The translations under genes were made by a program, and so were the position numbers. This document shows, piece by piece, positions 6,565 through 39,064 of a DNA stretch of 64,000 bases (positions are counted from its first letter, which is position 1; each line of letters begins with the position of its first letter). The notes under the pieces are model-generated. The model searched no databases, had not been told where the DNA came from, and saw only the letters and a list, made by a program, of their open reading frames with translations. Source of the stretch: Raillietiella orientalis (Eukaryota); contig JAYWIR010000027.1 of assembly GCA_036172245.1 (NCBI GenBank), forward strand, positions 1,488,001-1,552,000, written 5' to 3'.

Positions 6565-7135
6565 GCTCCTTTTTTTTTTTTTTGCCCAAGGGAGCCTCTT
6601 CCTTATTCTCTCCGAAGGGACCTCCCGTTTGAAGGAGTTTCTCCTCGTTTTTCCTCTGAAAAGAACCCGGAAAGAATCCGCTCCTGGGGTTTCTTCTCTG
6701 CAGGGACCCCTGGAAAGGGAACCGTCCCCCGTTTCCTCCTCTGAAGACATGAACCCCGAACGGACGCCTCCCCATTTCTCCAAAGGGCGCTCCCCGAAGG
6801 GGGCAGCGCGCCTCTCGACACTCTGGAGAGGATCGATCCACCAGTTCCGTGGCAACGAGATGGACGGCTCCATTTGCAGAACAAAAGGGGGGGGATCTGT
6901 AAGGGCTCCTTGATTCCCGGAAGGACCCCGGAGGGTCATCAACTTCCAATCCCGGCCACGCAACGGGTGGGTCCGGTTTGCGTCTCCCAGCGGTGCCTCA
7001 GCCGAAGAGCGTCATCTTGCGAGGGGACTCGAAACCCATCTGTCGGCGTCGGTCCTTCTCCCCCGGGCGGGATTCGAACCTGCTACGCGCGGTGCCGCGC
7101 GCGGAGAGCGCAGCCTCACGGCCGCTAGCGCGAGC
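6565..7135 (-). mobile_element. tRNA-derived SINE, copy A (internally deleted before the A-tail)
   Basis: Minus strand shows a box-A-like TAGCGGCCGTGAGG, box B GGTTCGAATCC, a body near-identical to 13240-13768, and an A13 tail at ~6570-6582. Confidence 0.8.
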
Positions 7136-16524: not shown

Positions 16525-19500
16525 CTTACCCGGTCACGCCGGGACGTTTATTAACATAAACTAGCTGGAAACAGTTGTTTCCAGCCAACGGCTACAGAAA
16601 ACCAGCAACGGAGATACAGCACTGGCACTCAGGCCAGGAAAGCGGAAGGACCTGAACGAATGGGGGAGGAGAGGACTACAAACAAAAAAGAAAAGTCTAA
16701 ATGGGAGGAATGGGTCAAGGAACTTTGGTGACGCTCCGCAGTCACCGGAAATGACAAAGAGGAAAAGCACCAAAAGCACTACGGAGCGAATGGGAAGAGA
16801 GGTGCGAGAACAAAAATGGAGTTAAAAGGGAATGGAAGTGGATAACTGGGTTCGTTGTTCCAAACCGTGGTTAATCCGGCGATGGGTGCCGGTGAGCTCC
16901 TCCGTTGCATTTTCGTTTAAGTGTCGCCACCCAGCTGCCGCACTGATGAAGTCGGCTGCCTTCCTGGTGACACAGCATCGCTGATCAGTGTTCTCCAGCA
17001 CGTCTCGGACCGATGGCGCGGATGTAACCAACTGTCGAAATCATCGCAGCCGTCGAAAGTCTTTGTGGTTAAAAGAACCGTCGCAGCACTTCTCGGGAGG
17101 TGTCTCCCGGTGGCAGGAGTGCTGCTGCCAACTTCCGTCAGAGTTCCTGGAGGGCACTGCAGTCCACAACAAGGTGCGGGAACAACTCTGTCGCCCCGCA
17201 CCGGGCACAGTAGGGAGAAGCCACCCCACCGGAAACTCGGTGCCGCCGCTCGTTGTAGCGCAAACCCCAGTACAAGAAGGGCAAGACGTCTTGCTTCCAT
17301 GCAAGGGGAAACACCGGACCGTCCAAACAGCAGGGAGGGACTATCAGTTCTTCGGGGGCAACACCAAGAGCTTCTCACCACCGAAGTAGTCCTTTTGCTG
17401 TAGCACGAGGAGTGGCTGCATCCGCCAGCTCTCTCGTGTCCCATTTGCCGAGGAGTTTCGTTCTTCATCCGAAAGTCCTCTGGACGCAGACGGGCCATCC
17501 CTCGTTCGCCTGTTGGCTTGCTCGCTTCCTGTTCCCATGGAAACCAAGCAGCTGATTGACTCCGGACGCGTGCACGCATAGAACCTCAATGGGGCATCCG
17601 CAAAAGGGGGAAGAAGAAGAAAAAAATTCAAAAGAATTCTGGATTCCAGTCCTTCCGGAATTTAGAGAAGATGGCGGACTCGGAACCTGTCTTTGCTTGC
17701 ATGCTTCCTCCGAATGCCCAGGAGAGAGAAGATGATGGCGTCATCCATAGCGTCCACTGCAGAGTCCTCTTTCTCGAGTGTCGCGTCTCTGCCGACGCAC
17801 ACCGACAGACAATCCCTGTCCAGTTCGCTCCGCTCCAGCGGAGGTGCATCAACTCCAGGCGGCTTCCGACAAAGTCTGAAGAGTGAACGAAAGGCCATGC
17901 CGGAAGACCTCCTTCCGAGAACACGTGCAACAGGCAACCGCAAAGCCTTCCAGATGCTCGCGCTGGCGGCATCGTGAGCGAACAGCACGCAGCGCTCATC
18001 TCTCCGCCTAAGAGATATGGTCAAAGTCCGTTGCCATTAGACGCAGGACACACACATGGTTCCACCCGCTCCGATGTATAGGCTACACCGAGGCCCCCAT
18101 CACCACTGCAAGAGCGACAAGTACAGAGTTCATCATCAGGGACTCCATTTTACAGAATTCAGGGGCTACCAGATTCATCCAGGGTAACGTGCACCTGTCA
18201 GCGTCACATGCGCTACCCTACCCAGCCAGGCAAACTCCACGTAACACACAAACAATCCAACCGAGGTCACCAAACCTAACTTACACTACCCTGACTTCAG
18301 ATACCTTACCCTGACCTACTCCGACTTAACCTGACTTACCCTGGTCCGAGGTATCCCATTTCACCCTGCCCTGCCCTGCTTTGTCTAGACCAACTCAACG
18401 CTGACCTCCCGGTGCCTTTTTCACATGTAGACTGGGGTTGCTCTGAGCCACTGAAACGCTGGAACGAAGCTGGAAGAGAGCACGATATGTTTGCTCGTTC
18501 GCTGGTTCTGACTGTCAAATTCCTTATTGAGTCGCACCTTCCCGCCTCTTAGTTTCCCAACGTCCCTCTCGTGGGTTGCAGATCCACGGAGAATGCAAAC
18601 CCTGATTTCACTGTGTCTCAGGCGTCTGCTGGTGTCTGCTCCCGGAGGCTGCTGACCGAGGCCGCGTCCCCGCCGTGCTGCACCCGGACGTCTCGGCGAA
18701 CGCTCCAGGCAAACACCCTCCTCGGGAGGGGGAGCTGCAACCGGAAGCGAAGGCTTCCCGCACTGCCCCCTGGAGCGTACATCCTGTGGAAGCTGGAGGA
18801 GGTTCGCGCGTGAGGAGGGAAGGTTCGTATCATCTGCTGTAGTGGGCGTGATGGTCGTTTGCATATAGGGGAGCGGCAGGTCCGCTACAGGACAGGCAAC
18901 GCCACCGGGACGGAGGATGTTTCCACGGCAACCGGAGGTACTCGATCCCCGCATTCTGAATTCGGACACCTGGAGCTTCCGGAGGGCTCCGGGGAGTAAA
19001 AAGGGGAAAGGAGCCAGTCGAAGCTTTCCCCCGCGCACGTCATCTTTTGACCTGCGTGGTCGCGTCAAAACCAGCGCATGGAGGTCGCGGAGCGAGAGCG
19101 GTTCGGTTCTGCCGCAGCTGGGAAGCGGATGGAAGGTCCAGCTGCCCGTCGGTGCCGCTCGCAAGGGGGGAACTTTGCCGCGCACCCTCGATCGCTGCGG
19201 ACGGCACTTACGCCCCCCTGCTCTACGAAACGCGACGCCCTGCTCGCGTGAAGGCGACGGTAGACGCCGGTCCGCATCCGGCGCGACGCCACCGCTGTGA
19301 CCGACCTCCTCTTCAAGAAACGAGGCTGCGCCACCATGCAAGAAGCGCGCGGCCGGTTCAAAAGTTCGCCGGAAACTCTCGAGAGAAAAAAGACGGACAA
19401 TACGGGAACAAAGCGTTCCCCCCTTCCACCTCCAGGGACCCAAACGCCAGGTCGCGCGATTCAACCCCGGATCGCCGGGTCTTCTGGGATGCCCAAGGAC

Positions 19501-21000
19501 GAAGATGCTCCCGGGAGCTCGAAAGTCCATAGATGTGCGCGCACCACCTCGGTAATGGTGCCCTCCCCCTCCCTCCCTCTTCCGCCTTCCCAAAGGCAGA
19601 ATGCGGCGCGACGCCACAGGGCGCCTGCGAAGACAAAGGCGATGCGTTTCGAAGGGCTTCTGCGGCCGCCGTGCCGGTTGGCGAGAGGACAGGGCGAGGA
19701 AAGGGGGTTTCGAGGGTCTCGACCGGACCGGCGCTCCCTGCGCGCCCCTTTAAGTGCTTTCTGGGTGAGAGAGCTGAGTGGCAGAATCCGCCTGGGAGCA
19801 AGCACAACACACCCCTCGCGGGCGCTCGGGGAGCGACCGGAGAAGACTCGGCGGGCGGCGCACGACCTTAACGGGCGTCCCGCTAGGGCCGCGCGGAGTT
19901 CGCGCGTGCTCGGTCTTGCCTCTGCGCGGCCTGGAGTACCCCTCCTCCTTCGGTCTTCAGGCGGCTCCGCAGGACGCGTCCCGCGGGCAACCGTGCGGTC
20001 ACCCAGCGACCCCACCGCCGACAGTCAGCGTGCTGATGAGAGCACCTCAGGACGGAAGAAAGGTTCCTCATCGCAGAGGCGCCCCGAGAAGCTTCCAGAG
20101 GAAGTCTGAAGCTCGGGGCACGCAGAGAAATGAAGGGCGCGACCGCCACTCTCCGTCACATGGACCTCCTCCACCCCTTCTTCTCGCGCACGGAACCGGA
20201 GCGAAGGACTCCGCGCGTTGTCCACCAAATGCGCGTGAAGCAGCCTAAGGCCACCGTGGTTCGACTGTGGAGGGACCGCTCGCTCCGCTTTTCGCCTCCC
20301 GAGGCCACTGCAGGCACAGCGCTCTGGACGCCGACCCGAAGCAGGCCGATTCGACGGCCGGGTAACGGCACGATGACAACCTTCTCCGCCGTCTTCCTAC
20401 CGGTGGGCAGGCTCGCAGGGCTTAGAGCGGGAACCAGCCAGCCAGCCCATCCGCCTGGTTTCTGCGGAGACGCCAATTCGAACGAGGCGTTCCGACACTC
20501 CGCAAAGCCGCCTGCGACACGGCCTCTCGAGCACCCGCGTTGCCTCTGCCGCCGACACCTTCCACTGAATCGTGGTTTCGTTTCAGTCGCCCACGTGCAG
20601 CAAATCTTTCCCTGGGGAGGCAGGAATCTCCCCCCATCTGCAAACTCCGGGAGCCCCCTCCGCTTCGCGCCCGTCTCGGTTCTTTGCTCCGGCTTGGCGT
20701 CGCACCTCTGGTCAGCGGGAACGGCCGGCGGTTTCCCGTGATTCCTTGCACGCCTCTCGGCGAAGACCCGCGAGCCCGGCGGGTCCGTGTCCTCCACCGA
20801 CGCTGGGGAGCGCCTTGCGCCGCAGAATGAAAATTGCCCGGCATCCGTTGACTGTGGACGGCGACCTCGAAGGAGGAGAAGGAGGCTGACAGCAGAGCGG
20901 ACGGTTCGTCGCCTGCCGGCATGCGGAGGAGGGATCCGGCACGATCCGCTGGCGGCAGCTAAGCGATTCGCTCATCTCGTGGGTGGATTGCGCTTAGGAA
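16525..21000 (-). mobile_element. Decayed L1/Tx1-like LINE, copy c, interrupted at ~18030-18420
   Basis: CARCGATELFPHLVVDC zinc knuckle (~17155-17210), TTADDTNL (~18830), RRPGDPGL (cf. KSPGPDGL, ~19470) and a 3' AATAAA+hairpin at 16529-16552. Confidence 0.7.
18210..18410. repeat. Degenerate pentamer tract, consensus ~(AACCT/ACCCT/GACTT)n, TTAGG/TCAGG-like on the minus strand
   Basis: In-register 5-mers: cctaa cttac actac cctga cttca gatac cttac cctga cctac tccga cttaa cctga cttac cctgg...cctgc cctgc cctgc. Confidence 0.75.
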
Positions 21001-21274
21001 ACGTGGTCCTCGTCGTTCGGTTTGAAGAAGCAAAGCAAAACAACACAGAAAAACAAGGCATGGCTGCAGCAGCACGCAAAACCAGAAAGCAGTTCGCAAG
21101 AAGAAACCAACGGTTTCGGTTGATCCCCGGCTTCGACGACCGCTACGGATGACAGCGTGTTGCTGCGACGGTCACCTGGCTTCGAGGCGACCTTGGTTAG
21201 GATGTAGATGCCTCCAGGGAGAGACTCGTCCACTGCGCTGCGATTGGACTCACCTCTGCGATAACTCCAATCGC

Positions 21275-21760
21275 TTTCGCCCGGATCCGGAGCATGTATC
21301 ATAGGAAAAAAAATAAAAAGCATTTTCGATAGAACACGTGGTTCTGCCACGTACGGTAAGCAAAGGAAGTTCTTTCCCACTTGCCAATCGGGGTCCGGTG
21401 CGGGGACGCAGGGGTTTGGGGAAAAACGGGACAAAGCGAAACGAAAAAGTTATGAAAAGGATACATGTTGGGTGGGGGGTGGGGGTCCAGGACGGGATCA
21501 CCGCATGTCCCGCGACGTCCAGTTCGTTCTCTGGAGAAAGCTCGTAAGCTGGCGTTTTCTCTTTTTTCCCATCCGTCCCAGCATAAGGAGGACCACTCCA
21601 CCATCCCGGAGCACACAAGACATTCAGTCAGCATCGGGATCTCCCTGTGTCCAAGAAGGCTGCCCTCGGGACGTTCTCGGTGGTTCGTCTGATGGCAGCA
21701 CCGAAGGGGCAAAGGAAAGGACGAAGGCAAAGCAGAGAAGCCACGAACCGAGTACCCACC
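21275..21760 (-). mobile_element. LINE 3'-end fragment, copy d
   Basis: GGGGGTCCAGGACGGGATCACCG matches 7413-7435 and 39270-39293; T-rich 3'UTR on the minus strand; terminal CCGG-AT-CCGG element at ~21281. Confidence 0.5.
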
Positions 21761-21764
21761 AGCG

Positions 21765-22265
21765 ACCCCGTTGGCACCCGCGTGGCTGCACTGACACCGA
21801 AAGCCGAGAGTTCGAATCCCACCCGGGAGAACGGAGGATCTACGCCGAGAATGAGGAGGCGTGCGACGAGGTTTACGAGTTCCCCTCTTCAGGATGACAG
21901 GTGCTAGCCTACTCAGATGCGGACGGACCGGTGGAAGCCGGAAAACAACGGATGACCCCGCTCCCTGCCCGCGACTGCAAGTTGATCCTCCTGGATCCTT
22001 CCAAGATATCGAGGAGCCCTTCAGGCTTCCCTTCGGAGACGACCCGGGACCGATGCCCCCTCCCCAGCTCAAGAGGAGAGCGGACCCTTCCTCCCTCCGG
22101 CCGGACCCTTCCTGCATTCGTAGAGTGGTTCCTCCGTGGTCATCCCTCTCCCGAAGAGTCAGCACCCACCCACCCTCGGGTGGAGTGGGCAGCGTCCAAG
22201 GCCTTCGAAAGGCACCCCCTGGAGAAACGGACGGTCCCAAAAAGGAAAAAGAAACAATACAAAGC
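21765..22265 (+). mobile_element. Diverged tRNA-derived SINE, copy D
   Basis: Head TGGCTGCACTGACACCGAAAGCCGAGAGTTCGAATCCC; body GTTGATCCTCCTGGATCCTTCCAAGATATCGAGGAGCCCTT resembles copy B 13424-13466; A-rich end at ~22240. Confidence 0.6.
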
Positions 22266-22469
22266 AACGCCCCACCCCACTTATCTCGGGGCTGTGCACA
22301 CGCCCCCGCACGGACTGCTGGAACGCGGCAGGCTTCGTCTGCGACGGGAGCGCACCGACGGAGCACCTCCGAACGCACGCGCACATCTATACCACGTGCG
22401 CCTCTCTCTATTTCTCTCTGCAGTCTCTCTACTTCTTTTGATTCAGTTGACGATTCCATTCCTTCCATC

Positions 22470-22980
22470 TACGCGCATTCACGGTAGCATGCTAAGAAAT
22501 GAGTAGGCGGACAAAAATACATTTCAAATACACTGCTGATCGTATGGACACGCGTGTGGAAAAGGCGCTTGCATATCAATGCGTACGTGAATGCGTACAC
22601 ATGCGTACACATTCCCGTGCAAGGAAACGCGCGTCCGTTCATCTCTACAATCTGCGCAGCCCCGCTCATTGCATTGATGGTTCCATCCCTGCACATTCGA
22701 ATTCTCCCCGTGCACGTTGTCCATCGCATTCACACGCGCGTTCGTCCACACCAATGAGCACGCGTGTTCAAATACATTGGCGGACTTCTACGTGAATGCT
22801 CACGTAGTAAACGCATATACGTTTTTTACGATCTCCGCCGCTACCTGGATTCCGCGGACGATTGCAAAGATCGATTCGTGCACATTGCATTCGTACGCAC
22901 TGCCGATTGTGTTCCTACGAGTGTCCAAAGGCACCGACATGCGAGCACGTGCGCACCAACACGTGTCGTAAGCGTAAATA
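22470..22980. repeat. Low-complexity alternating purine-pyrimidine tract (mirrored at 33260-33770; similar tract at 25600-25890)
   Basis: Dense ACGCGT/CGTACG/TGCACA/ATGCGTACAC motifs, including tandem ATGCGTACAC x2 at 22591-22610. Confidence 0.55.
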
Positions 22981-23162
22981 CGCGCTCCTCTCTTGCGCCC
23001 TTTCGAGCTTTCGGCACTCGTGATTTCGAGCCCAACCCGCGTGTGGGCACGCAGAACGCCCCGTGCCGACGCCGCTGGAATCGCGTCCGTCGACAGGGCC
23101 GAGTCCTTCCTTCCACAGCCTCAAAGGTACCACCGGCCTGCTCCCAGGACGGTGAGTCTGCC

Positions 23163-24833
23163 TTAGAGTCCGCATGCGGTAGCATCCATTGACGTCAGCC
23201 GCCGACTCATCCTCAGGACGACGTTCGTCGAAAGCAGGGCAGGTGCCGTCGTCAGCCACTTCTTTTTCAACCCCTCCGAGCCCTTGCGTTCCCACGGGAA
23301 CTGCGTTTCCGAATCCACCCACTCGAAGCGCTCTTCCCATGCTCTGGAGCACCTCCTCCCTCGAAAACGAACTTTCTCCCATCCCTATCAACTTCCTCTA
23401 GGGCATCGCGGTTGCCCTCCACCCGTACGAAAAATACTCCTATCCATCCCTGGCTTCCCTGGGATGGATCCTTGCCACCCCAGCTGCACATATCACGGAA
23501 AGCGATCGAGCAGAAAGAACGAACACAGAAGCAGCTTCCGAACCACACGGCGGCGTGACCACCTCACCCAAGCGCAACGCCTTGACAGCGCACCCGCCGG
23601 CTGGCGTCCACGTTCTCCGAACTGCGGTCGCCACGATTACGCGCCATCTGAATGAGCGCCGATCGAGGCATTCATCCCCTTGCGCGGGAGACCGCTTCGG
23701 GAAGGCCATGCGCCTCTGCGGCGAAACGCTGCGCGGCTGCCGGGATGCTGCTTCTCCGTGCTGCACGACGTCCAGGTTCCGGCAACGGAGCTCTGGCGAA
23801 ACGCCATCTGGACGCCACCCTGCCACGCCATAGCAGGGTCCGTAGAATCGACAAGCCATCCGGGGAATGCCTCCAGCCTCAAGCGTGGCAGAGCGCGGTC
23901 CGTCCGATAAGCAGCCGAAAGGTCAGACGCACCTCAACCCTTTGATAACGAGCCCGCAACGGCTGCAGTCGGCTTCACCGCGGAGAAGAAAAGTGCCGGG
24001 CCACGGGGATTCTGGGAGCGCCTCGACGACCGACGCCATCTTCGATGCCGGATGCCACGCTTCCTTCTCACGCTCTTCCTGACCCCCCTTGGTTCTCGCC
24101 GGGATCGGGGGACCGAGCCACGACGGTCGAGGTGCGTCTCGTCGCGCACCTCCACTCCACGATCGCGCCACTGCGCGCGCTGCAGACGAACATGCGGCGC
24201 CTCGATCAGCAGCGACCGCTCAAGCATCTCCTGAAACTCTTCCACTTGGCCTGCATCCGCGAAACCTTCCGCCCGATGCGAGGCGACGGTTCCTTTGCAG
24301 CGTTGGCGCCGCCACCAGCTCCGCTGTTCCGCGTATCCCCGGAAACGCCCATCTCCCAGTAGGCGCACCTGCTGCCAACGCGCAGCCCGCAACCGCGGCG
24401 ACTCGAATCGGCAATCTTGGCAGCTTCTTTCCCTTTGCGTGCGGTCTTCCCCCCCCCTCCTCCCCGTGGTCCAGGGACCTCTCGCGTGGCGCCACGCATG
24501 CTCGGCCACCTGCCCAAGTCCAAGTCGCGCCAGACGCGAACCGTTCGCCGCGCTGCGCTTCCTCGCAACTCGACGAGCCCACCTGCATGCGTGTCACTTT
24601 TCTCCCCCCTTTTCTTTGCTTTGCGCATCCCGAGCAGCGAGATGACTAACACTTTTCGCTCCTGCACACCTTCCGCACAACGCACCTTCCGCGTGCGAAC
24701 CGAAGCAACAACGCTGACGTGGCGCAAATTCACGTGCCGCCGACTGGATGCTGAGCCCGCGTGGCCCCCTCCAGCTCACCGGACGGTGAAACGCCCGGAG
24801 AAGCTTTCGCCAGCATGGCGCGCCTGCCGCCAT
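23163..24833 (-). pseudogene. MRPS30 (mL65/PDCD9)-like mitoribosomal protein pseudogene, left-arm copy
   Basis: Mirror of 31407-33078; see that entry. Confidence 0.55.
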
Positions 24834-24938
24834 CTTCGCTGACTCGCTGTGGGTCCTTCCCAAGGACGCCCCAGCAATGCTCGGCGGAGTCCAGTCCCCC
24901 TCCCTGCGGAAAGATACGTGCCGGCAATCTTCCTTCTT

Positions 24939-25379
24939 TTATTGCAACGAATCTTTGGTGAACGCATGCGGGTACAAGTCCGCCAGGCTGGTCACAAGCA
25001 CCGCGTCGCTCTGAGGCCCGCACAGATACACCACCATCGCGCCAGAGTTGAATTCCGACAGCGCCTGCCTGCAACTACCGCAAGGGAACGTGAATTCCTT
25101 CGACGCCCTCTTCCCTGCGACAGCAACCGCTTTGAAGGACCGGTAGCCTGCGCACACAGCCGTCACGAGCGCTGTTCTTTCGGCGCACGACACCACGGAC
25201 GAGGAGGCGTTCTCCACGTTGCAACCTTTGAAGATGCTGTCATCTTCGGTCAAGATCGCTGCCCCCACCGGGAACTTGCTGTACGGGCAGTACGCGTTTT
25301 CCATGGCTTCCATGCTCGCCGCCACGAGCTTCTGCTCCCACGGCTCCAGTTCCATCACCTTTCTCACTGCTCCACACAT
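24939..25379 (-). CDS. CDA: Cytidine deaminase (homotetrameric free-nucleoside type), 146 aa, intronless
   Basis: AYCPYSKFPVGAA, GCNVEN, CAERTA (Zn ligand and catalytic Glu), PCGSCRQ and LYPHAF; full length, with AATAAA overlapping the stop. Confidence 0.96.
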   Translation of the reverse strand: MCGAVRKVMELEPWEQKLVAASMEAMENAYCPYSKFPVGAAILTEDDSIFKGCNVENASSSVVSCAERTALVTAVCAGYRSFKAVAVAGKRASKEFTFPCGSCRQALSEFNSGAMVVYLCGPQSDAVLVTSLADLYPHAFTKDSLQ

Positions 25380-26049
25380 TGCCTCGTCTGCTCACCACGC
25401 GTTGGTCACCTACGGCAGAAAAAACAATCGCATTCTTCCTCCACCTTCTTTTCTTTTCTTTTTTGACGTGGGATTCTGCCCATCTTTCGGATAGCAGCGC
25501 GGGTGCATTCGCGCTTGCACAGGTCGTCGTCGTCGCACCGCACCCCATGCGAAAAGCGCCACTCCCTTTCCTCGGCGACCGTGAACACCTACGGCCGACC
25601 GGCCGAACATCGCGAACACTACGTGGACGCGGACGAACACTCTGCAAATGGGTCTCGACATGCAGATCCGTACACCGATTCATTGGAACACGAGCACCGT
25701 GTACCACCCGCCAAGACAGCGACGACGAAGATCTCAACGTACGTCTCTCTCCATATCTTGCATTCCTTCCTATCGATTCACACGCGCACTACATAAATCG
25801 TGAGCGTTCGTACGAACGTATACATTCGAGGTGAAAAATACTACATACGTTCCTTGTGTATGGATTCATACATTCAGAACGACTACGCGTGAAATGAATT
25901 CATCAAAAAAATAAAAATGAAAAACACGGACGACCATTCGAAACACCGGAAAAAACAAACAAACAGACAAACACCTACAAGAAGGACATGCGTTAATTTT
26001 CCCGTGTGATGATGAAAGATTAGGGATTGCATCGACGCACACGACAAGC

Positions 26050-28400
26050 ACGCGTCACGTGCTTTCGCACCTCCTCCCGATGACCTCCTCCCTCGTTCCG
26101 GACGCGGTCGTCTGCGGACTCGGGCGTGCGGCAGATCGGGTGCGACCTTCTCCTGCGCGTGCGTGTCCCCCAGTCTCTCGATTTGCTGCCCCCGAGGGTC
26201 CCGCTCGCCGGCCGGCGCTCGCCTTTCCGGCCAACCGAGCGCCCCTGACGCCGCCGTCGCTGGGCGGAACCCGCTCGAGGGTTTCCTCTGCCCCCGCGGC
26301 TGTCCCACCCCCGCCGCTGTTGCACGCCGTCTTTCCTTTGCCGCCGCCGCGACCTTTCCCTTTCGTCGACACCACTTTGCCCTCGTCCGCGCCACTTCCC
26401 AGTCGATGACCGCGTTCCGGTCGATACGCCCGCCGGGCGCCAAGGCGACCGACCGCGCTGCTGACGAGGAGACAGCGGCGTCGGGCGAGGGACCGTTGGC
26501 ATCCCGCGCGAGGCCGGGAGTGGGCGACGCGTATCGCTGCGAAGGGCGGCGCGCTCCCGACGGAAGGCGCGTTACCCATCGGAAGAACCGCCCAGCTGCT
26601 ACTTCTGCTGCGTCCCGAGAGCCCACCATCTGTCCGCGGCGACAACCATCGATACCTCGTCAGAGGGATGCAAAAGGTGGGGGAGAGAGAGCAGGGAGGA
26701 TACACACCCTTTCGGTGATGACCCCGAGGCGCAGCTGTGCCAGGCAAAGGCGAAGTGCTCCCAGCGCTCCTCCAAGACCGCAGCACGCGACCCACACCAA
26801 CTACCTGTCCCCGCGCAGGTCTTCCGGGAATTTTCGCGCCAGAGCGCCGCTGCGGTCCGCGGGGGGGGCGGTCATCCGGTACGAATTGATGTAAAGCTGA
26901 GCGCGACCTCCACCACAAGGACAGCAGGAGTGACGGCAGTAGGGCGAGTCTCGGGCGAAACGGTGGAGCTCCCCCTAGCAAGCGCCGGCAAGCGGACGAA
27001 ATCGTCGGACCTGCCCACATCCAGTCCCGTGGACCGCGGGCTTTCGCGACAGCACAAGGTCGAGCGCTGACATTGCACCCCTCACTTCCTCCGTCCGGTG
27101 TAGCCCGTGCCGAACGGGGTGGCTCACCTTCCGGCCTGTTTGCGCGGACCTCAAAGTGTCTGCGATCTCGCCGCTGGAAACGATCTGCGAGTGCGTCTCG
27201 AAGGGCGGATACCGCGCAGACACCTCGGACAGGCATCTAGTGACCGAAGGAGAGGGTTGCTTGGAGAGGACGGAGCGAATCGCCCACGAGCGGCGTGGCG
27301 CGCAGCGTCCCCCTACTGTTTTCATCTGTCGTTCCGAAGCGGTCGATGCAACCGCTACGTGCTGCCTTCTTACTCGCGTCCCCAATTCCAAGCTTCCCCG
27401 AGTGGCGCGAGAGACCGCCATCGGGTGTTCGTATCGCGCGTGCAATCACAGCATGCAAACACTGGATGGGAAAACGCGTGGCCTAAAGACCAAGCGCAAG
27501 AGCAAGCACGCGCCTGGGCTCACCTCGCTCGAGCAACAACTCGGCTGCGCACGTCCGTCCACTGCGGGCAGAGAGCGAGAACAGCAGAGGGACGTCCTAC
27601 GCCCACGAAGTCCCCGCGTCGAAACGAGAAGGGATGCCGCGCTCGCGTGTGCTCCCACTTGCGCAGCGTTACCACGCACCGGTCGCGCGCGGAATGACGA
27701 CGCTTTCCCACTTCCCGGACGACTCCCGATGTGATGTCCCTCCCCCCTACCCATTCCAGCGATGCCTCGCTGCCGCGCGCAAGGTTAAAATTCTGCGTGT
27801 CGGATTCCAAACTCGGCATCCTGAGCGGTCCACGGTGCTCTGGGACGCAGGTTCCCTTCCGCTTGGAGGGATGGGCACCACGACGAGAGATCGACTTCGT
27901 CCGTTTCTGAGCGACAGTGGTCCAGCTCGCGAAACCTCGAGGTCCCACACCAGCTCCCGGGTCCAACTTGCATCGTCTGCCAGAGTGCTGGCAAACATTC
28001 GCCAAGGTCTCTTTGCCCGGAGCCTTCTCCAATGTGTCGTCTTCGAAAGGTGCGAACCCGCTTTGGCCACCAAGCGCGCCAGAAAGAAGCAGCTGCCGTC
28101 GCACCGGCGCACCCACGTTCCGGCCTTCTCGTTCGGCGACGGCTCCGCAGGCATTGTTGCGTGTGACGTAACATCCGCCTCGTTTGCCGCCGCACACCTC
28201 TCGTCCCCCGACTTCCGGGGTGCTCGAATTCGAAGGCGGAAGAGCTTTTTCGGCTTCGCATCGTTTCGTCGGCGCAGACGGCAAAAAATGGGTTGCACTC
28301 GGGCGTCCACGAGTGTGGCTGCTGATCGGAGCCACGAAAGGTCAGGCCCGCGTCGGAGGCCGTGTGGTTACGGAGGTCTCCGCGTGTGGCACCTGGCGTT
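26050..28400 (-). mobile_element. Decayed Ty3/gypsy pol relic crossing the inner breakpoint of the left arm
   Basis: VTRCLSEVSARYPPFETHSQIVSSGE (cf. TVN..L.VD.YPLP...LFA.L.GG), FVRLPALARGSSTVS (cf. Y.RLPFG.SSAP.IF), QFVPDD (cf. Y.DD), RGHHRKGVYP and PATAASGALG (cf. L.TDAS..GLG) occur in the expected order. Confidence 0.55.
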
Positions 28401-28439
28401 GCGAGTCCGAATACTCGGCAAGAATGGACGCAAAGAGTT

Positions 28440-28870
28440 TGTGCGCGTCGTGGGTTCGAGTTGGAGACCCGCGAGATAACTGTGCTCGGCCTACTTCCGG
28501 GGGCGGCGCCCAGTAGTGGTTCAAGCTGTATGCCCCCGAAGAGGTCCCAAATTATGGAAGTCGACCTCCGGGTGCCTTCCAGGAATCAAGGAGTCGGAGT
28601 TCCCCTCCAGTTGTGCATAGAAGCAGACTCCCCTTTGGGGGGGACCCTCCATAGAGTAGGTGTGTCGTCATGTCTCTAGAGTTCCAGAGGAGCGTGCCGC
28701 TTTCTTCGGGGAGAGCTCCCTTCTGAATTTCGGAAGCGTCCCTTCGGGGTCTCTTCAGAGGAGTAAACAGGAGCGGTTCTCTTGCAGGTTCCCTTCGGAG
28801 AAGAAAACATGGAACGGACCCCTTCGGGGTCCCTCCAGAGAGAGTAAAGAAGGGAAGGATTGTCTTCCGG
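28440..28870 (+). mobile_element. Diverged SINE fragment, copy E
   Basis: GGAAGTCGACCTCCGGGTGCCTTCCAGGAATCAAGGAG plus CCTTCGGGGT...CAGAGGAG internal repeats match copies B and C; box-B-like GGTTCGAGT at ~28453. Confidence 0.65.
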
Positions 28871-28899
28871 GTTCCCGTCGTAGACAACCGGGGTTTGGA

Positions 28900-29815
28900 G
28901 GTTCCCTACTGGAGTGCTTCCGTGCTCTTCCGAGTGTGAGCGGTTGCTGCCTGCTGCCTTCATCAAACGTTCTTATTCTGCCAGGTGTCCAACAGGGCTG
29001 GGTCGGCCTATACCGAGCGTATGGGCCCTTTGACCTGCTGGTGTTCAGTGTTTTCCATGCTTGCCTCCGTTCGAAACTTGAGTAGACTTATTTGCTCACT
29101 ATTGCCAACTTCGATCCCCTCTAAGGTCTCTGGGAAACCCAGATAAAAAGACAAGGAATCTCACAGCTGCCACCTAACGAGTGCCTCCAACCCCCTGACT
29201 TGACATCTGCGGATGATGTACTTTCTCTTGATTTTTCCAGTGCAACCCGCGGTGGGGTGAATTTATTCAGCGATCTTAACACAAACCCACAAACAAATGA
29301 ACACCACCACTCTGGCGACCTGTGGGTTGCTTTCAAGTCACAGCGGCCCGCGCGGGCAACTCATTGCACCGTCCTGGGCGATTCTTAAGCAATGCAAGAG
29401 AGTCCAGGAGAGTACTCTGCCTCATGCCCGTATCCTGATGTCCCTCTTCAGAAGTCCTTGCACGATGTTCTGGGCGTTACATACGTGGACCCTCTCCAGC
29501 TTCTTCCTGATGAAAATCCTCCTCAGAAAGAATGCACAGAGAGGTTGTAACGGGGCACACCGTCTTCGCCTTCAAACAGCCCTCGTTGGATGTCCAGTTT
29601 GCGTTTTTCGTCCATTCCGATAGCATTCCATAGCAATTGCCAGGCCAGGACAAGTGTGCGGCACGTGTGAACATGTAGGTCATCTTCGGTTGACCTGCAT
29701 GCCGGGAACTAGTCGTCATCGGGGTTCCCGGTCCAGCGTCAGGGTCTCGTTCCGCGTTGAATGCCTCCATGATATGACATCAGAAGACAATCCTAGCAGT
29801 AACGAGGAACTCTGG
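28900..29815 (-). mobile_element. Ty3/gypsy integrase relic
   Basis: RHAGQPKMTYMFTRAAHLSWPG (HHCC Zn domain; cf. H.GHPG..KM...AR..VWWPG), ELPARAAVT*KQP (cf. GLP..IVSDNG) and HHPQMSSQG (cf. YHPQSNG). Confidence 0.6.
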
Positions 29816-30860
29816 AAGACTGGAACGCGGTCATCGACTGGGAAGTGGCGCGGACGAGGGCAAAGTGGTGTCGACGAAAGGGAAAGGTCGCGGCGGCGGC
29901 AAAGGAAAGACGGCGTGCAACAGCGGCGGGGGTGGGACAGCCGCGGGGGCAGAGGAAACCCTCGAGCGGGTTCCGCCCAGCGACGGCGGCGTCAGGGGCG
30001 CTCGGTTGGCCGGAAAGGCGAGCGCCGGCCGGCGAGCGGGACCCTCGGGGGCAGCAAATCGAGAGACTGGGGGACACGCACGCGCAGGAGAAGGTCGCAC
30101 CCGATCTGCCGCACGCCCGAGTCCGCAGACGACCGCGTCCGGAACGAGGGAGGAGGTCATCGGGAGGAGGTGCGAAAGCACGTGACGCGTGCTTGTCGTG
30201 TGCGTCGATGCAATCCCTAATCTTTCATCATCACACGGGAAAATTAACGCATGTCCTTCTTGTAGGTGTTTGTCTGTTTGTTTGTTTTTTCCGGTGTTTC
30301 GAATGGTCGTCCGTGTTTTTCATTTTTATTTTTTTGATGAATTCATTTCACGCGTAGTCGTTCTGAATGTATGAATCCATACACAAGGAACGTATGTAGT
30401 ATTTTTCACCTCGAATGTATACGTTCGTACGAACGCTCACGATTTATGTAGTGCGCGTGTGAATCGATAGGAAGGAATGCAAGATATGGAGAGAGACGTA
30501 CGTTGAGATCTTCGTCGTCGCTGTCTTGGCGGGTGGTACACGGTGCTCGTGTTCCAATGAATCGGTGTACGGATCTGCATGTCGAGACCCATTTGCAGAG
30601 TGTTCGTCCGCGTCCACGTAGTGTTCGCGATGTTCGGCCGGTCGGCCGTAGGTGTTCACGGTCGCCGAGGAAAGGGAGTGGCGCTTTTCGCATGGGGTGC
30701 GGTGCGACGACGACGACCTGTGCAAGCGCGAATGCACCCGCGCTGCTATCCGAAAGATGGGCAGAATCCCACGTCAAAAAAGAAAAGAAAAGAAGGTGGA
30801 GGAAGAATGCGATTGTTTTTTCTGCCGTAGGTGACCAACGCGTGGTGAGCAGACGAGGCA

Positions 30861-31301
30861 ATGTGTGGAGCAGTGAGAAAGGTGATGGAACTGGAGCCGT
30901 GGGAGCAGAAGCTCGTGGCGGCGAGCATGGAAGCCATGGAAAACGCGTACTGCCCGTACAGCAAGTTCCCGGTGGGGGCAGCGATCTTGACCGAAGATGA
31001 CAGCATCTTCAAAGGTTGCAACGTGGAGAACGCCTCCTCGTCCGTGGTGTCGTGCGCCGAAAGAACAGCGCTCGTGACGGCTGTGTGCGCAGGCTACCGG
31101 TCCTTCAAAGCGGTTGCTGTCGCAGGGAAGAGGGCGTCGAAGGAATTCACGTTCCCTTGCGGTAGTTGCAGGCAGGCGCTGTCGGAATTCAACTCTGGCG
31201 CGATGGTGGTGTATCTGTGCGGGCCTCAGAGCGACGCGGTGCTTGTGACCAGCCTGGCGGACTTGTACCCGCATGCGTTCACCAAAGATTCGTTGCAATA
31301 A
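30861..31301 (+). CDS. CDA: Cytidine deaminase, second copy (identical protein)
   Basis: Same 146 aa protein as 24939-25379; upstream acceptor-like TTTTTTCTGCCGTAG ends at 30830. Confidence 0.96.
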   Translation: MCGAVRKVMELEPWEQKLVAASMEAMENAYCPYSKFPVGAAILTEDDSIFKGCNVENASSSVVSCAERTALVTAVCAGYRSFKAVAVAGKRASKEFTFPCGSCRQALSEFNSGAMVVYLCGPQSDAVLVTSLADLYPHAFTKDSLQ

Positions 31302-31406
31302 AAGAAGGAAGATTGCCGGCACGTATCTTTCCGCAGGGAGGGGGACTGGACTCCGCCGAGCATTGCTGGGGCGTCCTTGGGAAGGACCCACAGCGAGTCA
31401 GCGAAG

Positions 31407-33078
31407 ATGGCGGCAGGCGCGCCATGCTGGCGAAAGCTTCTCCGGGCGTTTCACCGTCCGGTGAGCTGGAGGGGGCCACGCGGGCTCAGCATCCAGTCGG
31501 CGGCACGTGAATTTGCGCCACGTCAGCGTTGTTGCTTCGGTTCGCACGCGGAAGGTGCGTTGTGCGGAAGGTGTGCAGGAGCGAAAAGTGTTAGTCATCT
31601 CGCTGCTCGGGATGCGCAAAGCAAAGAAAAGGGGGGAGAAAAGTGACACGCATGCAGGTGGGCTCGTCGAGTTGCGAGGAAGCGCAGCGCGGCGAACGGT
31701 TCGCGTCTGGCGCGACTTGGACTTGGGCAGGTGGCCGAGCATGCGTGGCGCCACGCGAGAGGTCCCTGGACCACGGGGAGGAGGGGGGGGGGAAGACCGC
31801 ACGCAAAGGGAAAGAAGCTGCCAAGATTGCCGATTCGAGTCGCCGCGGTTGCGGGCTGCGCGTTGGCAGCAGGTGCGCCTACTGGGAGATGGGCGTTTCC
31901 GGGGATACGCGGAACAGCGGAGCTGGTGGCGGCGCCAACGCTGCAAAGGAACCGTCGCCTCGCATCGGGCGGAAGGTTTCGCGGATGCAGGCCAAGTGGA
32001 AGAGTTTCAGGAGATGCTTGAGCGGTCGCTGCTGATCGAGGCGCCGCATGTTCGTCTGCAGCGCGCGCAGTGGCGCGATCGTGGAGTGGAGGTGCGCGAC
32101 GAGACGCACCTCGACCGTCGTGGCTCGGTCCCCCGATCCCGGCGAGAACCAAGGGGGGTCAGGAAGAGCGTGAGAAGGAAGCGTGGCATCCGGCATCGAA
32201 GATGGCGTCGGTCGTCGAGGCGCTCCCAGAATCCCCGTGGCCCGGCACTTTTCTTCTCCGCGGTGAAGCCGACTGCAGCCGTTGCGGGCTCGTTATCAAA
32301 GGGTTGAGGTGCGTCTGACCTTTCGGCTGCTTATCGGACGGACCGCGCTCTGCCACGCTTGAGGCTGGAGGCATTCCCCGGATGGCTTGTCGATTCTACG
32401 GACCCTGCTATGGCGTGGCAGGGTGGCGTCCAGATGGCGTTTCGCCAGAGCTCCGTTGCCGGAACCTGGACGTCGTGCAGCACGGAGAAGCAGCATCCCG
32501 GCAGCCGCGCAGCGTTTCGCCGCAGAGGCGCATGGCCTTCCCGAAGCGGTCTCCCGCGCAAGGGGATGAATGCCTCGATCGGCGCTCATTCAGATGGCGC
32601 GTAATCGTGGCGACCGCAGTTCGGAGAACGTGGACGCCAGCCGGCGGGTGCGCTGTCAAGGCGTTGCGCTTGGGTGAGGTGGTCACGCCGCCGTGTGGTT
32701 CGGAAGCTGCTTCTGTGTTCGTTCTTTCTGCTCGATCGCTTTCCGTGATATGTGCAGCTGGGGTGGCAAGGATCCATCCCAGGGAAGCCAGGGATGGATA
32801 GGAGTATTTTTCGTACGGGTGGAGGGCAACCGCGATGCCCTAGAGGAAGTTGATAGGGATGGGAGAAAGTTCGTTTTCGAGGGAGGAGGTGCTCCAGAGC
32901 ATGGGAAGAGCGCTTCGAGTGGGTGGATTCGGAAACGCAGTTCCCGTGGGAACGCAAGGGCTCGGAGGGGTTGAAAAAGAAGTGGCTGACGACGGCACCT
33001 GCCCTGCTTTCGACGAACGTCGTCCTGAGGATGAGTCGGCGGCTGACGTCAATGGATGCTACCGCATGCGGACTCTAA
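31407..33078 (+). pseudogene. MRPS30 (mL65/PDCD9)-like mitoribosomal protein pseudogene, right-arm copy
   Basis: Exon 1 MAAGAPCWRKLLRAFHRP|gtgagc resembles a mitochondrial presequence. Colinear blocks in shifting frames: ERSLLIEAPHVRL (cf. DCLLQEHFYLR), TFLLRGE (cf. HFYWVRGE), FPGWLVDSTDP (cf. FVGSKTADP), WTPA..../CQG (cf. WTGAQAMYQG), DG*EYFSY (cf. DGKYFSF), EGLKKKWLTTAPALL (cf. KGFNDDVLLQIVHFLL). Comparison is to the vertebrate sequence from memory. Contains an in-frame stop and frameshifts. Confidence 0.55.
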
Positions 33079-33975
33079 GGCAGACTCACCGTCCTGGGAG
33101 CAGGCCGGTGGTACCTTTGAGGCTGTGGAAGGAAGGACTCGGCCCTGTCGACGGACGCGATTCCAGCGGCGTCGGCACGGGGCGTTCTGCGTGCCCACAC
33201 GCGGGTTGGGCTCGAAATCACGAGTGCCGAAAGCTCGAAAGGGCGCAAGAGAGGAGCGCGTATTTACGCTTACGACACGTGTTGGTGCGCACGTGCTCGC
33301 ATGTCGGTGCCTTTGGACACTCGTAGGAACACAATCGGCAGTGCGTACGAATGCAATGTGCACGAATCGATCTTTGCAATCGTCCGCGGAATCCAGGTAG
33401 CGGCGGAGATCGTAAAAAACGTATATGCGTTTACTACGTGAGCATTCACGTAGAAGTCCGCCAATGTATTTGAACACGCGTGCTCATTGGTGTGGACGAA
33501 CGCGCGTGTGAATGCGATGGACAACGTGCACGGGGAGAATTCGAATGTGCAGGGATGGAACCATCAATGCAATGAGCGGGGCTGCGCAGATTGTAGAGAT
33601 GAACGGACGCGCGTTTCCTTGCACGGGACTGTGTACGCATGTGTACGCATTCACGTACGCATTGATATGCAAGCGCCTTTTCCACACGCGTGTCCATACG
33701 ATCAGCAGTGTATTTGAAATGTATTTTTGTCCGCCTACTCATTTCTTAGCATGCTACCGTGAATGCGCGTAGATGGAAGGAATGGAATCGTCAACTGAAT
33801 CAAAAGAAGTAGAGAGACTGCAGAGAGAAATAGAGAGAGGCGCACGTGGTATAGATGTGCGCGTGCGTTCGGAGGTGCTCCGTCGGTGCGCTCCCGTCGC
33901 AGACGAAGCCTGCCGCGTTCCAGCAGTCCGTGCGGGGGCGTGTGCACAGCCCCGAGATAAGTGGGGTGGGGCGTT

Positions 33976-36900
33976 GCTTTGTATTGTTTCTTTTTCCTTT
34001 TTGGGACCGTCCGTTTCTCCAGGGGGTGCCTTTCGAAGGCCTTGGACGCTGCCCACTCCACCCGAGGGTGGGTGGGTGCTGACTCTTCGGGAGAGGGATG
34101 ACCACGGAGGAACCACTCTACGAATGCAGGAAGGGTCCGGCCGGAGGGAGGAAGGGTCCGCTCTCCTCTTGAGCTGGGGAGGGGGCATCGGTCCCGGGTC
34201 GTCTCCGAAGGGAAGCCTGAAGGGCTCCTCGATATCTTGGAAGGATCCAGGAGGATCAACTTGCAGTCGCGGGCAGGGAGCGGGGTCATCCGTTGTTTTC
34301 CGGCTTCCACCGGTCCGTCCGCATCTGAGTAGGCTAGCACCTGTCATCCTGAAGAGGGGAACTCGTAAACCTCGTCGCACGCCTCCTCATTCTCGGCGTA
34401 GATCCTCCGTTCTCCCGGGTGGGATTCGAACTCTCGGCTTTCGGTGTCAGTGCAGCCACGCGGGTGCCAACGGGGTCGCTGGTGGGTACTCGGTTCGTGG
34501 CTTCTCTGCTTTGCCTTCGTCCTTTCCTTTGCCCCTTCGGTGCTGCCATCAGACGAACCACCGAGAACGTCCCGAGGGCAGCCTTCTTGGACACAGGGAG
34601 ATCCCGATGCTGACTGAATGTCTTGTGTGCTCCGGGATGGTGGAGTGGTCCTCCTTATGCTGGGACGGATGGGAAAAAAGAGAAAACGCCAGCTTACGAG
34701 CTTTCTCCAGAGAACGAACTGGACGTCGCGGGACATGCGGTGATCCCGTCCTGGACCCCCACCCCCCACCCAACATGTATCCTTTTCATAACTTTTTCGT
34801 TTCGCTTTGTCCCGTTTTTCCCCAAACCCCTGCGTCCCCGCACCGGACCCCGATTGGCAAGTGGGAAAGAACTTCCTTTGCTTACCGTACGTGGCAGAAC
34901 CACGTGTTCTATCGAAAATGCTTTTTATTTTTTTTCCTATGATACATGCTCCGGATCCGGGCGAAAGCGATTGGAGTTATCGCAGAGGTGAGTCCAATCG
35001 CAGCGCAGTGGACGAGTCTCTCCCTGGAGGCATCTACATCCTAACCAAGGTCGCCTCGAAGCCAGGTGACCGTCGCAGCAACACGCTGTCATCCGTAGCG
35101 GTCGTCGAAGCCGGGGATCAACCGAAACCGTTGGTTTCTTCTTGCGAACTGCTTTCTGGTTTTGCGTGCTGCTGCAGCCATGCCTTGTTTTTCTGTGTTG
35201 TTTTGCTTTGCTTCTTCAAACCGAACGACGAGGACCACGTTTCCTAAGCGCAATCCACCCACGAGATGAGCGAATCGCTTAGCTGCCGCCAGCGGATCGT
35301 GCCGGATCCCTCCTCCGCATGCCGGCAGGCGACGAACCGTCCGCTCTGCTGTCAGCCTCCTTCTCCTCCTTCGAGGTCGCCGTCCACAGTCAACGGATGC
35401 CGGGCAATTTTCATTCTGCGGCGCAAGGCGCTCCCCAGCGTCGGTGAAGGACACGGACCCGCCGGGCTCGCGGGTCTTCGCCGAGAGGCGTGCAAGGAAT
35501 CACGGGAAACCGCCGGCCGTTCCCGCTGACCAGAGGTGCGACGCCAAGCCGGAGCAAAGAACCGAGACGGGCGCGAAGCGGAGGGGGCTCCCGGAGTTTG
35601 CAGATGGGGGGAGATTCCTGCCTCCCCAGGGAAAGATTTGCTGCACGTGGGCGACTGAAACGAAACCACGATTCAGTGGAAGGTGTCGGCGGCAGAGGCA
35701 ACGCGGGTGCTCGAGAGGCCGTGTCGCAGGCGGCTTTGCGGAGTGTCGGAACGCCTCGTTCGAATTGGCGTCTCCGCAGAAACCAGGCGGATGGGCTGGC
35801 TGGCTGGTTCCCGCTCTAAGCCCTGCGAGCCTGCCCACCGGTAGGAAGACGGCGGAGAAGGTTGTCATCGTGCCGTTACCCGGCCGTCGAATCGGCCTGC
35901 TTCGGGTCGGCGTCCAGAGCGCTGTGCCTGCAGTGGCCTCGGGAGGCGAAAAGCGGAGCGAGCGGTCCCTCCACAGTCGAACCACGGTGGCCTTAGGCTG
36001 CTTCACGCGCATTTGGTGGACAACGCGCGGAGTCCTTCGCTCCGGTTCCGTGCGCGAGAAGAAGGGGTGGAGGAGGTCCATGTGACGGAGAGTGGCGGTC
36101 GCGCCCTTCATTTCTCTGCGTGCCCCGAGCTTCAGACTTCCTCTGGAAGCTTCTCGGGGCGCCTCTGCGATGAGGAACCTTTCTTCCGTCCTGAGGTGCT
36201 CTCATCAGCACGCTGACTGTCGGCGGTGGGGTCGCTGGGTGACCGCACGGTTGCCCGCGGGACGCGTCCTGCGGAGCCGCCTGAAGACCGAAGGAGGAGG
36301 GGTACTCCAGGCCGCGCAGAGGCAAGACCGAGCACGCGCGAACTCCGCGCGGCCCTAGCGGGACGCCCGTTAAGGTCGTGCGCCGCCCGCCGAGTCTTCT
36401 CCGGTCGCTCCCCGAGCGCCCGCGAGGGGTGTGTTGTGCTTGCTCCCAGGCGGATTCTGCCACTCAGCTCTCTCACCCAGAAAGCACTTAAAGGGGCGCG
36501 CAGGGAGCGCCGGTCCGGTCGAGACCCTCGAAACCCCCTTTCCTCGCCCTGTCCTCTCGCCAACCGGCACGGCGGCCGCAGAAGCCCTTCGAAACGCATC
36601 GCCTTTGTCTTCGCAGGCGCCCTGTGGCGTCGCGCCGCATTCTGCCTTTGGGAAGGCGGAAGAGGGAGGGAGGGGGAGGGCACCATTACCGAGGTGGTGC
36701 GCGCACATCTATGGACTTTCGAGCTCCCGGGAGCATCTTCGTCCTTGGGCATCCCAGAAGACCCGGCGATCCGGGGTTGAATCGCGCGACCTGGCGTTTG
36801 GGTCCCTGGAGGTGGAAGGGGGGAACGCTTTGTTCCCGTATTGTCCGTCTTTTTTCTCTCGAGAGTTTCCGGCGAACTTTTGAACCGGCCGCGCGCTTCT

Positions 36901-37820
36901 TGCATGGTGGCGCAGCCTCGTTTCTTGAAGAGGAGGTCGGTCACAGCGGTGGCGTCGCGCCGGATGCGGACCGGCGTCTACCGTCGCCTTCACGCGAGCA
37001 GGGCGTCGCGTTTCGTAGAGCAGGGGGGCGTAAGTGCCGTCCGCAGCGATCGAGGGTGCGCGGCAAAGGTCCCCCCTTGCGAGCGGCACCGACGGGCAGC
37101 TGGACCTTCCATCCGCTTCCCAGCTGCGGCAGAACCGAACCGCTCTCGCTCCGCGACCTCCATGCGCTGGTTTTGACGCGACCACGCAGGTCAAAAGATG
37201 ACGTGCGCGGGGGAAAGCTTCGACTGGCTCCTTTCCCCTTTTTACTCCCCGGAGCCCTCCGGAAGCTCCAGGTGTCCGAATTCAGAATGCGGGGATCGAG
37301 TACCTCCGGTTGCCGTGGAAACATCCTCCGTCCCGGTGGCGTTGCCTGTCCTGTAGCGGACCTGCCGCTCCCCTATATGCAAACGACCATCACGCCCACT
37401 ACAGCAGATGATACGAACCTTCCCTCCTCACGCGCGAACCTCCTCCAGCTTCCACAGGATGTACGCTCCAGGGGGCAGTGCGGGAAGCCTTCGCTTCCGG
37501 TTGCAGCTCCCCCTCCCGAGGAGGGTGTTTGCCTGGAGCGTTCGCCGAGACGTCCGGGTGCAGCACGGCGGGGACGCGGCCTCGGTCAGCAGCCTCCGGG
37601 AGCAGACACCAGCAGACGCCTGAGACACAGTGAAATCAGGGTTTGCATTCTCCGTGGATCTGCAACCCACGAGAGGGACGTTGGGAAACTAAGAGGCGGG
37701 AAGGTGCGACTCAATAAGGAATTTGACAGTCAGAACCAGCGAACGAGCAAACATATCGTGCTCTCTTCCAGCTTCGTTCCAGCGTTTCAGTGGCTCAGAG
37801 CAACCCCAGTCTACATGTGA
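33976..37820. mobile_element. Mirror copies of SINE D (33976-34476, -), LINE d (34481-34966, +) and the 5' part of LINE c (35240-37820, +)
   Basis: Lies within the right arm as the exact reverse complement of left-arm elements. Confidence 0.7.
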
Positions 37821-37949
37821 AAAAGGCACCGGGAGGTCAGCGTTGAGTTGGTCTAGACAAAGCAGGGCAGGGCAGGGTGAAATGGGATACCTCGGACCAG
37901 GGTAAGTCAGGTTAAGTCGGAGTAGGTCAGGGCAAGTTAGCTCAAGTCA

Positions 37950-38045
37950 GGAGCACTCCTTATTCTCAGCGTAGATCCTCTGTTCTCCCGTGCGGGATTT
38001 GAAGCTGCGGCTCTCGGTGTCAGTGCAGCCACGTGGTCGCCAGCC
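37950..38045 (-). mobile_element. Isolated tRNA-like SINE head abutting the right-arm outer breakpoint
   Basis: Minus strand CGTGGCTGCACTGACACCGAGAGCCGCAGCTTCAAATCCCGCACGGGAGAACAGAGGATCTACGCTGAGAATAAGGAG closely matches the head at 21781-21858. Confidence 0.7.
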
Positions 38046-39060: not shown

Positions 39061-39064
39061 TTGA

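Follow-up and report, generated by a model that had tools for sequence, protein, structure and literature searches.

A near-identical inverted duplication of the cytidine deaminase gene in Raillietiella orientalis, possibly older than its arm identity implies

A pair of nearly identical inverted arms lies within the window, the 64,000 nucleotide stretch of Raillietiella orientalis DNA analysed here, and raises the question of whether they were copied recently or are an older duplication that has since been homogenised. These are the two options put forward in the preliminary description of the locus and they are the right ones; the scars at the edges of the palindrome lean toward the older, homogenised duplication. 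Self-BLAST and global alignment place the left arm at 18309–26418 (+; 8,110 bp) and its reverse complement, the right arm, at 29822–37932 (−; 8,111 bp). Between them there are exactly three substitutions (19172 A/C, 20794 C/T, and 22612 T/G) and a single indel, one additional C in a C-run (24448/31792), just as first described, for an identity of 99.95% and a divergence of 0.05%. The four differences are evenly scattered, but the arm is free of them over its first 863 bp and its last 1,970 bp, giving the palindrome abrupt edges. With arms over 8 kb that are more than 99% identical and inverted around a spacer, the locus is a palindrome by the thresholds of PMC8327919. GC content is 0.607 in the arm, 0.599 in the spacer, and 0.578 and 0.601 in the flanks, which is no clear signal of GC-biased conversion. 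The window contains no N, and neither an Rfam family nor a tRNA gene was found in it.

Each arm carries one cytidine deaminase (CDA) gene, at 24939–25379 (−; an intronless ORF of 146 aa) and at 30861–31301 (+), with identical proteins. The copies point outward, away from each other, as had been proposed, and represent the sole intact CDA of the genome. The earlier claim that CDA is the only recognisable intact ORF of the arms also holds; when 105 stop-to-stop frames of 110 aa or more (14.2–30 kb and 37.9–42 kb) were compared with Pfam, no family other than CDA (PF00383) exceeded its curated threshold. The protein matches PDB 1MQ0 over its full length (E 4e-34). Intact C65-A-E67-R and P-C100-G-S-C103 motifs, which correspond to the three zinc cysteines and catalytic glutamate (CAER, PCGxC) in one domain of about 140 aa, suggest that it belongs to the homotetrameric class (PDB 1MQ0, 1ZAB, 1JTK). 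Of 39 columns in which 96 or more of 120 homologues agree, 37 have the majority residue in this protein, the exceptions being D47 and Y136; position 60 is Ser, against Tyr or Phe in 107 of the 120. The closest identities are only about 54% and the top matches are a mixture of animals and bacteria. Horizontal transfer of CDA has been considered as a candidate reading, from the intronless ORF and from its GC3 of 0.76 against 0.38 in a 6PGD exon at 21–749. This exon is about 56–64% identical to many animal groups and, like CDA, indicates a divergent animal without pointing to one group. The literature searches listed no paper on a CDA palindrome.

The inner junction identifies the arm that is the copy. 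The single-copy spacer (26419–29821; 3,403 bp) contains a dispersed repeat of about 580 bp (28345–28921) that is 84–89% like family copies on many contigs, and ends in the decayed 3' part of another dispersed repeat (29229–29821, −), which is provisionally called LINE-like and has no Pfam match. For all six family copies compared, identity with the window is 69–76% after the junction and 35–43% before it, where the copies agree among themselves at 71–98%. The right arm, not the left, is the derived copy, since its inner end interrupts this decayed repeat. The left arm would be the ancestral one; each of its junctions occurs once in the genome, and neither breaks a recognised repeat. The remainder of the repeat cut at 29821 is in neither flank (local scores 32–43; shuffles up to 46), which amounts to a deletion next to the right arm; an earlier 5' truncation of the repeat at the same base may be the alternative. 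The inverted microhomology at this junction is 3 bp (GTC) behind one mismatch, and is short enough to occur by chance.

The same junction bears on another rival, in which a foldback-like or giant transposon captured CDA and the arms are its long terminal inverted repeats. Only the geometry, in a region rich in retroelement relics, speaks for such an element. Against it, the repeat broken by the inner end was there beforehand, and the outer ends show no evident target-site duplication. Nowhere else in the genome is there a copy of the arm ends, of the CDA gene, or of the left of the spacer, and no transposase or integrase family was found by Pfam in the arms or spacer among the 105 frames. Genome searches returned this single locus and no dispersed copies with the same ends, and the transposon is thus largely refuted and highly improbable.

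The arm ends given in the preliminary description stand, yet two features beyond them had been missed. Homology continues outward for 19 nt, from 18290–18308 (+) in a degenerate 10-bp array to 37933–37951 (−), with 15 of 19 positions identical in register against 13 of 19 in the next best register. The 21% divergence of this fringe is drawn from 19 nt only, defined post hoc and inside a degenerate array, which weakens it as evidence. The genome shows no enrichment of the array motif (16 matches, 13 for the control), and the outer flanks beyond the fringe contain no old homology (score 28; shuffles 32 ± 4). The second feature is an 87-nt SINE-like piece at 37956–38042 (−), cut 1–2 nt before the fringe and 84% identical to 21772–21858. 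The latter is part of a decayed SINE-like relic (21772–22036, +; mirrored in the right arm) with a motif that we take to be like a tRNA box B.

The 87-nt piece and its arm copy are sisters. They have in common a deletion and a 5-nt insertion, and they group together against 15 family copies (FastTree 0.93; SH-aLRT 93/UFBoot 96), these being the part of the family that best matches the arm copy. They differ at 14 of 87 sites (16%), ten by transitions, with about four changes on the arm side and nine on the flank side since the split. The piece has no further genome match at E values up to 1. A sister piece with this divergence and with changes on both sides indicates that an old local inverted copy once existed here.

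Edge divergences of 16% and 21%, set against 0.05% between the arms, suggest that the palindrome is older than its arm identity implies if, as we infer, the 87-nt piece and the whole arm come from the same event. The favoured explanation, with a probability of about 0.5, is an old template-switch inverted duplication whose arms have since been homogenised through gene conversion between them. In the distant past, synthesis during repair or replication would have switched templates, so that the LINE-like relic, at its end (29821), was joined to 18290–26422 in inverted form. The 87-nt piece would have been acquired at the other junction as an insertion templated by 21772–21858, with synthesis resuming in the right flank and the rest of the LINE-like relic being lost. 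Gene conversion would afterwards hold arm identity at 99.95%, with the fringe and the 87-nt piece, unable to pair in register, drifting to 16–21% divergence. In this way the sole CDA gene would be held as two copies evolving together. The inner end has no datable fringe, which counts against an old and converted palindrome.

The fringe and 87-nt piece comparisons lowered the standing of a simple young duplication. A version of it is nonetheless a serious, if tentative, possibility: a recent fold-back or template switch that began at the 3-bp inner microhomology, copied 8.1 kb, and landed on the homeologous array. This presumes that the right flank already contained a short inverted copy of old date, made up of the SINE piece and array; the doubling of CDA would then be a recent event and possibly a polymorphic one. 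The abrupt edges, the four evenly scattered differences, and the many 99% local duplicates in the 564 kb examined are in keeping with it. One homology junction combined with one microhomology junction is a pattern described in PMC10766186. Human fold-back duplications are reported with a median spacer of 3,428 bp and microhomologies of 2–8 bp (PMC3907307), to which the 3,403 bp spacer and 3-bp microhomology fit; this match speaks equally for the favoured explanation. Against the young reading, an earlier inverted duplication must still have arisen locally at this very place, and the new junction must land within about 20 nt of the end of that older copy.

Those human fold-backs, inverted duplications with a disomic spacer, resemble this locus in their single-copy spacer of a few kb, here 3.4 kb, as well as in the adjacent deletion and, if not due to chance, the 3-bp inverted microhomology. 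They are described as de novo, mostly Mb-scale, and mostly terminal (PMC3907307), whereas the CDA palindrome is interstitial, has 8 kb arms, and bears old diverged junction pieces. Likewise, FoSTeS/MMBIR and ODIRA rearrangements (described in PMC11293582 and PMC10766186) have microhomology at one junction and a templated piece or homeology at the other, but no triplicated segment is present here. The 16% divergence of the junction piece points to age and not to a fresh template-switch event.

Three further inverted pairs came to light in the genome, each with arms of 10 kb or more that are at least 99.6% identical. The CDA palindrome is a known kind of structure and not exceptional in this genome. 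One of these pairs (C1) has graded edges, differing at about 8% of positions in roughly the outer 450 bp and at about 0.1% in the core, and in the second C27 palindrome the differences are clustered between identical runs of 2–3 kb. These are conversion-like patterns and favour the conversion reading, although the abrupt edges of the CDA palindrome, unlike those of the C1 pair, count against it. The notion that palindromes pervade the genome was lowered: probing of sites for inverted identical pairs gave 4 of 30 at first, then none among the 100 listed of 224 (C1–C15 only) and none of 17. Sites were compared by eye, one of two pairs found there was only 1.2 kb, and the density estimate is based on the focal contig and these probes.

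Several such pairs in one assembly could also have a common technical cause, namely amplification chimeras or haplotype mis-joining, and the 0.05% could be an allelic difference. MDA chimeras are reported in PMC9984789 typically to have short inverted overlaps and distances below 10 kb. Adineta vaga and Folsomia candida assemblies provide a parallel, each with several gene-bearing inverted duplicates (PMC7953838, PMC8494291), and the palindromes of the 2013 A. vaga draft were later judged likely assembly and scaffolding artefacts (PMC8494291). An artefact here would need two new junctions, of which the second must bridge 11.5 kb or more. Neither flank occurs elsewhere in the genome, and the contig extends about 1.5 Mb either side with no N across the 564 kb examined. 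In addition, copying errors cannot make a diverged fringe and a sister piece, and the graded and clustered differences of the other pairs look biological. An artefact is accordingly regarded as quite unlikely.

The parallel with sex-chromosome palindromes drawn at the outset holds for arm size and identity, but nothing at the locus ties it to a sex chromosome. Mammalian X and Y palindromes share arms of at least 8 kb, identity above 99%, a spacer, and a gene in the arms, and multi-kb conversion tracts of the kind reported for them could erase differences (PMC8327919, PMC3723533, PMC8981503). In place of a testis gene family the arms here carry a housekeeping salvage enzyme, and they have no clear GC excess.

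The duplication takes in only 1,039 bp of the DNA upstream of the CDA ATG. A pyrimidine run with AG (25410–25430, −), 30 nt before the ATG, is a possible cis- or trans-splice acceptor. The promoter or a first exon could therefore be in the single-copy spacer, and the suggested rise in CDA dosage is unproven. The closest of the four arm differences is some 490 bp beyond the CDA stop codon, which would leave transcripts of the two copies distinguishable by long 3' ends alone. The proposal of a hairpin siRNA source is weak in its original form, since transcription of CDA proceeds outward, so that its RNAs cannot traverse the spacer, and the repeats with the best conservation (28345–28921 and 29229–29821) sit in the unpaired spacer. 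The arms contain one patch only of old relics (about 21170–22200), 68–83% like family copies over at least 70 nt. Within it, only one stretch is a candidate for an inward promoter, a decayed 5' end of LINE-like type that represents the first 100 nt or so of a young family (21174–21273, +; 81–83%; mirrored at 34968–35067, −), which faces the palindrome centre.

A wider picture can be drawn, though it is doubtful as a whole. Old inverted duplicates might make up a few percent of the genome, in GC-rich, retroelement-laden regions of several contigs, and be kept near-identical by intrachromosomal conversion in the manner of Y palindromes outside any known sex chromosome. CDA would then be held in two co-evolving copies, possibly tuned by an inward transcript that starts at the LINE-like relic and folds into a stem as long as 5 kb. 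The doubling of CDA is itself minor unless expression data say otherwise. Good documentation of large palindromes kept by conversion comes mainly from sex chromosomes, and some of those claimed in invertebrates have not survived better assemblies. A built-in age marker, the 16% of the junction piece against the 0.05% of the arms, and several companion palindromes would make the rate of conversion, the length of its tracts, and its edge effects testable in an invertebrate.

The palindrome of the preliminary description was confirmed by self-comparison and alignment. Its arms, at 18309-26418 and 29822-37932, differ by three substitutions and one indel in a C run, the spacer is 3,403 bp, and N is absent from the sequence. 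The window lies in the middle of contig C27, which is 3.0 Mb in an assembly of 210 Mb and 491 contigs, and all four junction regions are single-locus in the genome. Judged from CDA and an exon of 6-phosphogluconate dehydrogenase, the host resembles a divergent animal. An inverted segmental duplication, an already known kind of structure, the palindrome exists in the assembly and probably in the animal too. An assembly artefact, for which an A. vaga case in a section of PMC8494291 is a precedent, is improbable, as it would have to create two new junctions and could not produce the diverged sequences at the outer junction, a fringe and an 87-nt piece.

Beyond the outer ends first given, arm homology extends outward by another 19 nt (15/19 identical), forming the fringe at 18290-18308 and 37933-37951. 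Adjoining this is the 87-nt piece (37956-38042), which matches 21772-21858 within the arm; a search of the genome found no other match to it. Both are relics of one SINE-like family and are sisters relative to 15 other family copies (support 0.93; second tree 93/96), with a deletion and a 5-nt insertion in common. Of their 87 sites, 14 differ, 10 through transitions, and both lineages carry changes. The flank copy ends 1-2 nt short of the fringe, and its arm counterpart lies 3.5 kb inside the duplicated segment. By analogy with the templated insertions tabulated in an excerpt of PMC11293582, a short junction piece copied from inside the segment is the expected trace of iterative template switching. 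If the piece arose with the arm, the duplication would have an age of approximately 0.18 substitutions per site against an arm difference of 0.0005, and gene conversion would be required. If instead the piece predates the arm, it and the degenerate array of the fringe would have served a young event as a landing site. The sequence indicates that an old local inverted copy existed at the locus under either order.

The favoured reading is an old template-switch duplication with arms since homogenised by gene conversion between the arms, and the palindrome is probably under concerted evolution. Against this, the arm edges are abrupt, the fringe, which was delimited only in retrospect, is short, and the GC content of the arms is not clearly raised. 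One recent long conversion tract could, however, yield the abrupt edges, tracts of >9 kb having been inferred for a human palindrome in the relevant portion of PMC3723533.

Where the right arm meets the spacer, a dispersed LINE-like repeat starts at the arm edge. On the spacer side the window has 69-76% identity to six family copies, whereas on the arm side it has only 35-43% identity to the same copies, which are 71-98% alike among themselves there. A search of both flanks found the missing part in neither. Because the repeat is broken at the junction and its remainder is in neither flank, we infer the right arm to be derived, with sequence lost beside it. The repeat could have been truncated at that base beforehand, though this would be a coincidence. 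The microhomology is 3 bp, and the palindrome is alike in this and in spacer length to the human fold-back duplications, with a median spacer of 3,428 bp and microhomology of 2-8 bp in the extract of PMC3907307.

Each arm has an intronless cytidine deaminase (CDA) ORF of 146 aa (24939-25379 and 30861-31301), of the tetrameric type and with intact zinc and catalytic motifs. The genome has no CDA match besides these (two among five candidates). CDA had been described as the only recognisable intact ORF in the arms, and none of the 105 frames with a length of 110 aa or more matched another Pfam family above its cut-off. Position 60 in CDA 24939-25379 is Ser, which is found in 6/120 homologues, with Tyr/Phe in 107/120; this might alter sugar binding. 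GC3 is 0.76 in CDA versus 0.38 in the 6-phosphogluconate dehydrogenase exon. The last portion of the latter gene is at 1-749, and exons resembling glycogen branching enzyme are at 47091-48190 (PF02806 on one, the name being inferred); both are in DNA of ~40-47% GC flanking a 60% GC repeat-rich block.

Doubled CDA dosage would depend on the position of the transcription start. The duplication takes in just 1,039 bp upstream of the ATG. A pyrimidine run with AG, 30 nt before the ATG, suggests an upstream exon or trans-splice site. With their outward direction, CDA transcripts cannot produce a hairpin; any hairpin would need an inward promoter. The sole candidate (21174-21273) is a 5'-end relic of a young LINE-like family, centre-facing in both arms and 81-83% identical to the family over 100 nt. 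The first ORF of this family has weak zinc-knuckle matches, below the cut-off. Transcription from this candidate promoter would yield RNA with a stem reaching up to ~5.2 kb, in antisense orientation to one of the CDA copies and in sense orientation to its counterpart. Because its loop contains the best-conserved repeats, the putative hairpin RNA would be far better directed against CDA than against the repeat families. Elsewhere, LINE relics at 7305-9515 and 39057-40400 resemble copies with endonuclease, RT and zf-RVT matches. Young copies of a zinc-knuckle element are 99.3-99.7% identical, which suggests that it was recently active.

Within the 564 kb of C27 examined there is a second palindrome (C27:1238138-1252010 and 1253601-1267483), with 13.9 kb arms, a 1.6 kb spacer and 99.67% identity. 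The arms of the two palindromes make up 7.8% of this stretch, where direct local duplicates are also present. An uncut repeat crosses the left inner junction of the second palindrome, and its arm differences are clustered; in one cluster the right arm retains the state present in a family copy. Small inverted pairs are found at 6596-7132 and 13235-13771 in the window (537 bp, 98.3%) and at C27:1670615-1676480 (527 bp, 99.1%). Their spacers are 4.8-6.1 kb and they lie within repeat relics, other copies of which are only ~65-70% alike. These may reflect the process behind the large pairs on a smaller scale.

Contig C1 has a 24 kb inverted pair with its members separated by over 400 kb (11515058-11545015 and 11953173-11982598), differing by ~0.1% in the core and ~8% in the outer ~450 bp. 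The latter is inside a relic, other copies of which are only 66-71% alike, and a further 4.4 kb at 92.8% extends past the inner end. An old duplicate whose core had been homogenised should have this shape. Contig C46 has an inverted pair (1152001-1162000 and 1192501-1202500) with arms of at least 10 kb, a lower bound as the ends were not reached, differing by two substitutions and one 35-bp indel; the arms are 64% GC around a 38% GC stretch. An identical inverted pair of 1.2 kb is present on C44. Spaced-pattern probes listed 147 sites (30, 100 of 224, and 17), and comparison by eye placed four of these in identical inverted pairs, those of C46 and C44, or roughly 1-7% of sites. The focal palindrome is one of a class in the genome. 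That old inverted duplicates on several contigs are held near-identical by intrachromosomal gene conversion is a tentative reading of this class, with a probability of roughly 0.2.
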